Below the pieces are notes generated by a model, which saw only the letters and a list, made by a program, of their open reading frames with translations, had not been told where the DNA came from and ran no database searches. Below, one piece after another: positions 41,439-54,524 of a stretch of 64,000 bases of DNA. The translations under genes and the position numbers were made by a program. The stretch lies in assembly GCA_951406725.2 (NCBI GenBank), contig OX597821.1, forward strand, positions 65,906,001-65,970,000, written 5' to 3'. Position 1 is the first letter of the stretch, and every line of letters begins with the position of its first letter. The DNA comes from Octopus vulgaris. Taxonomy: Eukaryota.

Positions 41439-41791
41439 AATTCTTTATTTTTGTATATTTTCATCTGTCTTACCTGCTTATGTTCTGGTGTTTGCTGAAT
41501 TTCTCTAGAGAACATTCTTTTCTTTGTGGTTAGATCGTTGGAGATTTTCTTCTAGCATATTGGATGTCCACTTAGTGGTCATTCCTTATTATATGCATGT
41601 ATTACAATTTTTCTGAATTTTCAGATTTTTCTATATGCTGGGCTACTGGTTTTAAATTGATGTTAATTGAATTAATATTCAATTTATCACCCTCATTATT
41701 TAAATATATATATATATATATATAATAGAAATATTAAAATTACTAAGTCTCTATAAAAGGAATTACGCCAACGTTTACTGGAAATTAATTG

Positions 41792-41936
41792 TTATCGCCT
41801 TCGAACAGAGACGTCAGTGGAAACACCTGCGGGTCTGACTGCGCTACATTGACAAGGGGCAATACCCCGAAACGCGTCTGTAGTTGTCGGACTGGCAGTG
41901 TGAAGCGGCTGACCTCCCTTGTTCGAAGGTTATAAT
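41792..41936 (+). ncRNA. Type I hammerhead motif (41843-41884, U3-A8 core) capping a long hairpin
   Basis: GCTACA-TTGACAA-GGGG-CAATA-CCCC-GAAA-CGCG-TC-TGTAGT; flanks pair (CCTTCGAACA/TGTTCGAAGG, GTCAGT/GCTGAC, TGCGGGTCTGAC/GTCGGACTGGCA). Confidence 0.75.
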
Positions 41937-42049
41937 GGATACAGATCGTGTATCAATAGCTATCTTGATGGCGGTGGCCTCATGGAGCTGACCATGGCAG
42001 TGATTATTCTTATATCTATAAGAATGCCATATTAATATGGCGATAACAA

Positions 42050-42088
<39 letters not shown>

Positions 42089-51700: not shown

Positions 51701-53073
51701 GTTTGGGGAGGAACCCATGGCAAAAGAGTGGCATGGAACGATAAAGCAGCAGAGGTGGTAGTAGGGTGGTGTGAAGTAATCAAGTAGTAGTGGTAACGAA
51801 GGTGTGGCCAGGGGGGGGGGGGTGTTGAGGTGCGGAATGGAAAGCCGAAGGTACAAATGATGAGTGACATGGAGGAGTAGAGACAGCAGCAGCAGCAGCA
51901 ACCATGACAACAAAAACAGCAACAACAACAACAACAGCACCAACAACAACATGTGATTAAAACTACATGATAGCAAAGTCCCTGATGGTTGTACTACAGT
52001 GGTGTGATAGTATTGTATTGGTAGTGGTGTTTTATGTGTATTAGTAGTGGCTACTGGGGCACTGTGGTGGCTGCGGTGGTAGTGTTGCTATGTGCTATGC
52101 TGTGTTGGTAGCAGTGTTGGTGGTAGACCTCTGTATGTAATTATGAGCTGTTGTAGTAGTAGTGGTGGTGGTGGTGGCGGTGGTAGTAGTAGTGTTGGTA
52201 GAGAGTCCAGTTTGCTGGACATTGTTGTAGAGCTGAAAAAGAAGTAATTTCTACTCTTCTCCTCTGGAAGCCATCTACTTGCAATACCAGAGGGCGCACA
52301 CTCTCCTACCCTGATGTAATCTCCAGGGATACAGGCATCCAGCATGGTGGTGGTGGTGGTGGTGGTAGTAGTAGTAGTGTTGGTGGTAGAGCTCTATGTG
52401 ATATTGATTCTACATTTTGGCCCCAAGCTAGCAAGATTGGTGAGAGGGTGACAGGTATTTATTTTATCGATCTCAACAAGATGAATGGCAAAGTCAACCT
52501 CAGTGGAATTTGAACTTGAAACGTAAAGACAGATGAAACGCCCCAAAACATGCTAACCATTCTCCCAGCTTGCCGCCTTAACTTTGTATGTAATACTAGC
52601 TTCAAATTTTGGCACAAGGGCAGCAAGTTCATTCGGAGTGAATAGGTTGAATACATCAACCCCAATATTCAACTGGTACTTATTTTATCAACCTTGAAAG
52701 GCAATGTTAAACTTGACAGAATTTGAACTCAGGAACCTAAGACCAGATGAAATGCCGCCAAGCTTTTTGCCTGGTACACTAATGATTCTGTCACCTTGCT
52801 TGCTGTCTTAATCCCTCAACTGTCCTTAATCCCTTGACTATTGGGGGTGTTACATTCCAAAACCCCCTGTGATAGGTAAAAATCCACGAAGTAGAAATAG
52901 TACTGTACTGTATATTTTCTTTTATTGTTTTTATAATTTGTATATATTCATTTTATTATAAATGCAAAACAACACCATGGAGAAATCGACGTAAAATTAA
53001 ATAATTAGCTGTAATAGGTGAATCGCGATGTGGTGAGGGATTACTACGTGTATGTATATATATATCAGTGCAC

Positions 53074-53121
53074 ATTCAAAGCCAGTGAACAGTAATTGAC
53101 GAAACCGGTTTGACTTTGAAT
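53074..53121 (+). ncRNA. Type I minimal hammerhead motif, G3-C8 core
   Basis: ATTCAAAGCCA-GTGAACA-GTAATTGAC-GAAA-CCGG-TT-TGACTTTGAAT; stem I 10/11 paired. Confidence 0.7.
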
Positions 53122-53308
53122 CATTTTAACAATTCATAGTAATGACTTTTATTCCTCTTAATTCTACTTCAGTTCATCTAATTGTGTATATTTATTGTTA
53201 CTTTTCATAAAAAAGCCTTTATTTTTTTTATATCCAATGTACATTTTCATTTTTTTCTTCTTAATTTCCCCATATCTCTTCCACATGAAGTTTCTATTTT
53301 CTTTTTGA

Positions 53309-53349
<41 letters not shown>

Positions 53350-53515: not shown

Positions 53516-54524
53516 TATATATATATGTATGTATCATATATACAATGATCCCTCAACTATCCTGGTGTTACATTCCAAAACCACCCGTGATAGGTGAAAA
53601 TCTAGGATGTAGAAACAGTACTGTACTGTATATTTTTAAAATTATTTTTATAATTTGCGTATATTTTATCATAAATGCGAAACAACACTACGGAGGAATT
53701 GACATAAGCTTAAAAAATAAAAAGTGATAGGTGATCTACGATATGGCATGGGTTTACTGTATAAGTAATAGTACTAATGTAGTGAATGGGTAGAATTATT
53801 AGCATGTTGGGCAATGTGCTTAGAGGCATTTCATCTAAATCTCTATGTTCTGAGTTCAAATTCTGCCGTGGTTGATTTTGCCTTTTGTCCTACCAGGGTT
53901 GACAAAATAAGTACCAGTTGAGCACTAGGGTCAATGTAATGGACTTACCCCTACCCTCAAACTTCCTGGCGTTCAAGCCAATATTAGTTAATTGTAGTAG
54001 CAAGGTGGTGAGCTGGTAGAACTGTTACTGTACTGGAAAAATGCTTAGGAACATCTCTAATGATTACGTTCTTAGTTCAAATTCTGTCAGGGTTGACTTC
54101 GCCTTCCATCCCTTTACTTCAATAAAATAAGTACCAACTGAATATTGGGGGAGCAATGTATATGAATAGCCCCTCCCCACCAAATCACTGGCCATGTTTC
54201 TGACCTTGAAACTAAAGTTAGTGTTGGTGGTGGAGCTCTGTATGTGATATTAGCAGTGGTTGTAGGCATGGTGGTGGTAGTTGCAGTGATGGTGGTAGTA
54301 TTGTAGTACAGGTAAAGGTGGTCATCCTGTGACTCTTGTGATGGTAACAATATTGGGAGCTGAGTGGAAGGCGTTTCAACAAGGATGTGCTGGTGGTGGT
54401 GGTGTTGCCAGGAGGATGCAATAACACACATTGAAAACAAATAACACACACACACACACATGTGTGTATATATATATATGCGCGTGTGACTGTGTACATA
54501 TACATATGTGTGTGTGTGTATGTG

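Follow-up and report, generated by a model that had tools for sequence, protein, structure and literature searches.

The stretch of DNA analysed here, referred to as the window, comprises 64,000 nucleotides of the Octopus vulgaris genome (assembly GCA_951406725.2, contig OX597821.1, positions 65,906,001 to 65,970,000 of the forward strand). Inspection of the sequence identifies a 48-nt hammerhead motif on the plus strand at 53074-53121, in which C3 and G8 of the core are replaced by G3 (53085) and C8 (53090). The other required core letters are present, namely U4, G5 and A6, A9, G12, A13 and A14, the A15.1-U16.1 pair and H17 (Table 1). Stem I has 11 positions with a single C·A mismatch (53082/53113) and stem II has 2 bp, just as an earlier reading made from the letters alone (the sequence-only reading) had quoted them. 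A descriptor with positions 3 and 8 left free matches at only two places in the window, at this site and at 41849, where the pair is U3-A8. Among 300 dinucleotide-shuffled windows searched with any Watson-Crick 3-8 pair, matches with at least 10 stem I pairs were absent (0/300) and those with at least 8 occurred at 0.037 per window; the motif thus withstands comparison with shuffled controls. Rfam, at gathering and E-value thresholds, has no match to the 53085 motif; since it also misses the more canonical 41849 motif, it is uninformative here. As a monomer the motif region shows no stability signal (folding z +1.15 relative to shuffles), as would be expected of a hammerhead that needs a partner molecule.

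Table 1. Coordinates of the hammerhead motif and of the element copy that carries it.
Feature	Position	Strand	Evidence
(TA)n at 5' junction, likely insertion target	53051..53065	.	sequence
5'-truncated 3' end (3' UTR/pseudo-LTR) of Neptune-type (by domain layout) Penelope-like retroelement, no ORF left	53064..53315	+	homology to other copies, 53064-53310
Hammerhead stem I, 5' strand	53074..53084	+	sequence; pairs covary across families
Core positions 3-9	53085..53091	+	G3 29/29, C8 27/29 other close copies; relatives have A3-U8, U3-A8 or C3-G8 at the corresponding site
Stem II (G10.1-C11.1 and one further pair) and loop II	53092..53100	+	sequence; 1-4 bp across families
Core G12-A13-A14-A15.1 (GAAA)	53101..53104	+	sequence; in all families examined except youngest subfamilies (1-nt insertion)
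Palindromic stem III (A15.1 to U16.1), predicted intermolecular pairing	53104..53109	+	stays palindromic across the lineage; cofold
N17 (U in window copy), predicted cleavage 3' of N17	53110	+	A in 25/29 other copies
Hammerhead stem I, 3' strand	53111..53121	+	sequence; covariation
(TA)n at 3' end	53312..53345	.	sequence; (TA)n or (CA)n likewise closes the majority of other copies

Host element and neighbouring repeats

A repeat of about 250 bp set between (TA)n runs carries the motif close to its 5' edge, and the motif is multi-copy in the genome (950 candidates, of which 40 were scored, giving 41 matches). Other copies share the 3' end and extend further 5' into an open reading frame that carries a reverse transcriptase (RT), a CxxxxCxxC linker and a GIY-YIG nuclease; for the window copy itself, no ORF match was found within the window. 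The 563-aa frame of copy L106 matches RVT_1 (2e-7) and GIY-YIG (3.8e-6), while four shorter fragments gave no informative match, and the translations show a CX2-5CxxC linker and a cysteine pair inside the GIY-YIG domain. A single ORF with RT and C-terminal GIY-YIG is typical of Neptune-type elements, the CX2-5CxxC linker being shared with Nematis (PMC8557442). Judged by its sequence, the host is a Neptune-type Penelope-like element, the clade name being taken from the domain layout rather than from placement against named Neptune or Nematis references. Copies of the element show 5' truncation, inverted partial copies and microsatellite targets. The Neptune clade is likewise described as having a GIY-YIG with two internal cysteines, the CX2-5CxxC linker, (TA)n targets and inverted truncated copies, but purine-3 hammerhead cores find no mention in the sections of that description drawn on here (PMC8557442). 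Penelope-like elements carry hammerheads on the sense strand, 3' of the RT-EN ORF (PMC4209133), and the motif here is also on the sense strand, about 180 nt beyond the ORF end (about 150-300 nt in the purine-3 families).

A direct pLTR-ORF-pLTR tandem was seen in none of 73 elements, from loci of 3-10 kb that rarely span a full element; 11 of the same 73 have inverted partial copies and 4 have short direct repeats. At least 120 protein homologues are listed, and the named ones are from bivalves; single-protein scans of two contig collections gave nothing, and alignment scans gave relatives. Contigs matching the window element show the family to be present in sequencing runs of two organisms, labelled C and D; one contig spans the 5' junction. 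Being assembled sequence, these contigs carry no information on RNA ends, strand or cleavage. A search of sequencing runs with a copy of a U3-A8 family (L165) listed no RNA run containing it. An alternative identity as the end of a Tc1-type inverted-repeat element was rejected, as homology runs upstream into the RT ORF.

The second motif of the window (41721-42050, core at 41849) is a U3-A8 type I hammerhead in a rearranged copy of a retrozyme-like repeat of about 360 bp, units of which are arranged in tandem at other loci (five to six at L266). Other tandem arrays, of 353-359 bp, have the canonical C3-G8 pair (L267, L269 and L271). The 41849 motif fits the class of non-LTR retrozymes, in which type I hammerheads lie in animal repeats (PMC7229834; bioRxiv 10.64898/2026.07.22.740005). 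Its repeat has no DNA similarity to the window element and no ORF match, and the two motifs are indeed unrelated, as the sequence-only reading had it. A retrozyme identity was rejected for the 53085 motif, which, unlike retrozymes (PMC7229834), is the 3' end of a coding element and not a short non-coding tandem repeat.

Two further repeats surround the element. One of about 230 bp flanks it with two copies (52811-53045 and 53548-53758) and resembles a pogo/Tigger-type miniature element. The other, of about 215 bp, is SINE-like, with tandem and inverted copies (52400-52790 and 53790-54150), and is presumably an octopus SINE.

The window copy differs from its subfamily majority at 16 of 239 positions. 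Position 3 is G throughout 29 other close copies and C8 is kept in all but two of them (Table 1). The stem I C·A mismatch is fixed in the subfamily of the window copy (subfamily A; C in 26/29, A in 28/29). At N17 the same copies have A 25 times and U and G twice each, and hence the family as a whole has the triplet GUA and a palindrome of 6 nt rather than 10. The GUU triplet and longer palindrome that the sequence-only reading pointed to are thus present in the window copy but private to it. With U17 the palindrome of the window copy reaches 10 nt, and in the cofold A13 and A14 become paired elsewhere; the change is predicted to be harmful and would represent private decay. The window copy itself is probably a dead relic. 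Rates of mutation in core and flank among close copies (5.1% vs 9.8%) were set aside as evidence because the copies had been chosen with a query covering the core.

Pair states at positions 3 and 8

A tight G3-C8 pattern has 114 matches in the genome as against 4 for the reversed control, falling into several subfamilies with differing loop II and stem I; the motif is therefore far from single-copy. A3-U8 cores number 1,686 (control 46) genome-wide; the leading contributor is a different family of this element type, whose triplet is GUC and whose stem I pairs are swapped (656 vs 0). The Y3-R8 pattern gives 13,187 matches against 1,181, with some places counted twice. The genome is very rich in hammerheads, with an excess of about 12,000 pyrimidine-3/purine-8 hammerhead-like matches, many of them U3-A8. 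With a looser G3-C8 pattern (249 vs 160), no second G3-C8 family appears among the 100 matches listed, and the excess belongs to the lineage of the window element. A loose core pattern was discarded as noise (1,715 vs 4,769).

The same pairing is found where the motif played no part in choosing the loci. In a motif-blind sample of 30 loci selected solely by the nuclease protein, the 3-8 state was A-U in 25, G-C in 3, G·U in one and deleted in one; leaving aside two loci that are non-homologous by eye (one A-U and the G·U), 3-8 is Watson-Crick in 27/27 homologous cores. When the flanks were fixed and positions 3 and 8 left free, a hand count of the matches listed (100 of 137) gave A-U 86, G-C 9, A·C 3, G·U 1 and U·C 1, with a Fisher p of 1e-9 for the 3-8 association, computed over copies that are not independent. 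Position 17 is A in 95 and U in 5 of the G3-C8 matches listed (100 of 114), and never C, as expected if G3 would mispair with C17. A G3-C8 hammerhead has been reported to perform worse with C17 than with G17, as data not shown (PMC3884650). A17 with G3-C8 counts as one event only, and A17 may predate G3.

Among relatives within the genome, U3-A8 families have the same short stem II and palindrome and lie 3' of ORFs that are about 55-67% identical. From other animals, 15 loci with at least 38% identity and a complete nuclease end were read by eye; nine have C3-G8, one U3-A8, one C·U and one a doubtful G·G, and no motif was found at three. All four Watson-Crick 3-8 pairs thus occur at the orthologous site across relatives. 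In the sequence-only reading, covariation was argued from the two motifs of the window; G3-C8 is in fact fixed in subfamilies and position 8 covaries with position 3 at an orthologous site, a stronger case than the one made there. The 41849 family is distinct, and in that sense independent families have varied the pair as that reading proposed, but the best evidence is variation within one lineage.

The stems change with the families. Stem I pairs swap identity between families by compensatory changes, while G10.1-C11.1 and the palindromic stem III are kept, as compared in representatives picked by eye and with L181 mis-parsed. The core of stem III grows from 4 to 6 to 8 nt along the lineage and remains palindromic, and stem II measures 1-3 bp in the purine-3 lineage. 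Between distant families the flanks match at shuffle level (42-55%) and the core letters are held. The youngest subfamilies have a 1-nt insertion in GAAA and have nevertheless spread; one of them has A3·C8 in three copies (L113, L116 and L123). Stepwise change of the GAAA region can be followed through L088, L091, L106, L122, L105, L113, L116 and L123, in which the stem III palindrome lengthens and stem I covaries.

Two other loci show an A3-U8 state of their own. At L156, adjacent inverted copies of one family (2621, minus strand, and 2717, plus strand) have the same stems, and one is U3-A8 and the other A3-U8. At L208:1969-2005, a single-copy A3-U8 hammerhead-like motif with a 6-bp stem II lies 3' of a distant Penelope-like ORF (31% identity) on a metagenome contig, and is possibly an independent flip.

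Trees and the order of 3-8 changes

In the protein tree (29 rows), the elements of the window genome form one clade (99/96) with U3-A8 families basal, and all purine-3 elements form one clade (98/91) inside the U3-A8 families; within the G-C/A-U lineage it gives no order of the states, and the outgroup chosen for it does not fall on one side of any single branch. The tree built from ORF DNA (73 rows) is ladder-like, with G3-C8 subfamilies basal and A3-U8 nested above them. On it, position 3 changes three times, each time together with position 8, and position 8 changes four more times (in two single decayed copies and twice for A3·C8). The G-C to A-U switch falls on a branch of 0.004 changes per site. 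AU tests, with groups named after the first tree had been inspected, reject monophyly of G3-C8 (p-AU 0.014) and the A3 rows as one side (p 3.7e-6). End branches measure 0.07-0.16 in one and 0.039-0.063 in the other of the two oldest G-C groups that are dispersed, and 0.010-0.046 at the ladder top; this shortening up the ladder fits the direction G-C to A-U, allowing that alignment to L106 may bias it.

With outgroups included, the 3-8 pair appears to have passed from C-G to U-A, then to A-U and then to G-C, followed, probably, by a return to A-U, for which reversal the DNA tree is the single source. The flip from pyrimidine to purine at position 3 (U-A to A-U) would then predate G3-C8. Since its immediate relatives are A3-U8, G3-C8 most likely arose from A3-U8 by two transitions, and not from C3-G8 by the two transversions of the sequence-only reading. 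That reading had excluded CpG decay, and this was correct, as neither the position 3 nor the position 8 site is a CpG. Micro-inversion of positions 3-8 was rejected because it would destroy UGA.

Function, alternatives and known hammerheads

We consider it fairly probable that the family hammerhead cleaves weakly as a predicted stem III dimer, with G3-C8 in place of C3-G8, and that the window motif is a decayed type I copy of it in a Penelope-like 3' UTR. In the predicted active dimer, stem III would hold two motifs together and each stem I would be built from one strand of either motif. Its likely role would be to cleave tandem or read-through transcripts 3' of N17 in the course of retrotransposition, perhaps with help from the protein of the element. 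In most examples the dimer is predicted to be favoured over two monomers; for the G3-C8 ones it is 4-11 kcal/mol less stable than the best predicted dimer fold, and thus low activity is predicted. Any Watson-Crick pair at 3-8 can reportedly cleave in vitro, a result of Przybilski and Hammann relayed by Perreault. The rescue of activity by a C3G/G8C double mutant, on which the sequence-only reading had leaned, holds in part, since in a Penelope-like hammerhead cleavage was restored only partially and with the help of protein (PMC11167929).

Positions 3 and 8 pair Watson-Crick in the active hammerhead (PMC3884650). As this is a tertiary contact of the active fold and is kept through repeated double changes, we infer that master copies were selected for that fold; the holding of the core between families whose flanks are at shuffle-level identity leads to the same view. 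Taken together, the sequences suggest that selection preserved the catalytic fold during repeated 3-8 swaps.

The fold might instead have been kept for a non-catalytic job, such as stem III RNA dimerisation, protein binding or template positioning, with the chemistry lost or dispensable in the purine-3 lineage, which we regard as rather unlikely. A very short stem II would suit such a job, as would the GAAA insertions and A3·C8 of the youngest subfamilies, in which stems I and III still covary. Minimal hammerheads of Penelope-like elements cleave slowly in vitro, and in the sole biochemical system insertion did not depend on them (PMC4209133, PMC11167929); in that system, the Anolis element, hammerhead mutants had no effect on in vitro insertion and RNA-seq ends were not seen at the cut site (PMC11167929). 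The in vivo role of the hammerhead has been called a mystery (PMC7761336). However, dimerisation needs only stems I and III, and would account neither for the invariant U4, G5, A6, A9, G12, A13 and A14 nor for four swaps of the 3-8 pair, which forms a tertiary contact in the active site.

The other two alternatives concern how the paired states came about. The double changes could have arisen in one step rather than by independent compensation, through a template switch or conversion that joined co-existing families at the core they share. The L156 copy of a U3-A8 family, alone among the matches listed (100 of 380), carries both changes to A3-U8, with no single mutants in that set, which hints that cores can swap between families, and positions 3-9 of the derived A3-U8 core match those of a sister family letter for letter. 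We nonetheless hold this to be improbable, given that the matches to the looser pattern described above include no other G3-C8 donor family, and that single-step intermediates exist (the three A·C and one G·U among the 100 of 137 fixed-flank matches listed); moreover, it would alter the route only, and the need for selection stays. Still less probable, in our estimate, is neutral drift in a few master copies, by which the paired states would be coincidental in a motif no longer functional. The number of events is small (about four), copies belonging to one subfamily are not independent, and the 25 representatives of a permutation test were chosen after viewing, so that the test is biased; its p-values are not relied on, the representatives having been picked by eye with L123, L204 and the insertion subfamilies omitted and L181 mis-parsed. 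Drift fits poorly, however, with a G-C to A-U switch on so short a branch (0.004 changes per site), with the same pairing in the motif-blind sample and the fixed-flank matches, and with a core that is conserved where flanks are unalignable.

The closest known counterparts of the family hammerhead are the minimal dimeric Penelope-like hammerheads (Cervera and de la Peña 2014, PMC4209133), which are also type I, lie in the 3' pLTR after RT-EN, and have G10.1-C11.1, a short palindromic stem III and mostly solitary truncated copies. Natural U3-A8 hammerheads are already published, including a covariant in that study (PMC3088659; PMC4209133). Its Fig. S3, however, has 56/56 representatives beginning the core with C or U, whereas position 3 here is G or A; stem II is usually 4-8 bp there and 1-3 bp here, and the extra nucleotide after A9 found there is absent here. 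Natural 3-8 covariation is likewise documented by Perreault et al. 2011, but as a pyrimidine-purine swap only, with neither a flip of orientation nor a within-lineage series in the portions of that paper on which we draw (PMC3088659). The G3-C8 core of the Penelope-like Anolis Poseidon hammerhead, with its partial, protein-assisted cleavage, is a laboratory mutant (PMC11167929), while several subfamilies here have that core naturally. Full-text literature searches on G3-C8, A3-U8, Neptune/Penelope and octopus hammerheads returned no natural purine-3 core in the texts they covered, with Lünse 2017 and supplements outside their scope.

What appears to be new is the natural occurrence of G3-C8 and A3-U8, which is well supported as covariation, catalysis being a prediction. 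The fuller claim, that these are the first natural flipped 3-8 hammerheads, in well over a thousand copies, and that one lineage traversed all four Watson-Crick pairs while staying active, we rate at even odds. If true, it would amount to direct evolutionary proof of in vivo selection for catalysis in Penelope-like hammerheads. Searches based on CUGANGA would then miss whole classes, perhaps including hammerheads of some elements said to lack them, such as Naiads. The string descriptor behind the statement that Naiads lack hammerheads required CUGANGA (PMC8557442), and therefore has a blind spot for other 3-8 pairs. Four swaps, nearly always Watson-Crick, would represent an evolutionary compensatory-mutation experiment at a contact of the active conformation, and the lineage supplies natural RNAs with all four pairs in near-identical backgrounds, as well as a testable rule of epistasis, namely that G3 needs a non-C at 17.

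Some minor observations concern the copies themselves. On one chromosome (C17, about 44-80 Mb), an old G3-C8 copy has multiplied locally as near-identical copies (L058-L062), likely by segmental duplication, and similar local clusters occur on C30 (L117-L119). Inversion or truncation junctions lie within or beside hammerhead stem I at L041, L042, L049, L055 and L066, in a sample biased by the search pattern. Penelope-like elements also appear under bacterial assemblies (L256-L265; proteins P0018, P0045, P0052 and P0073), where they are likely to be contamination from host animals.
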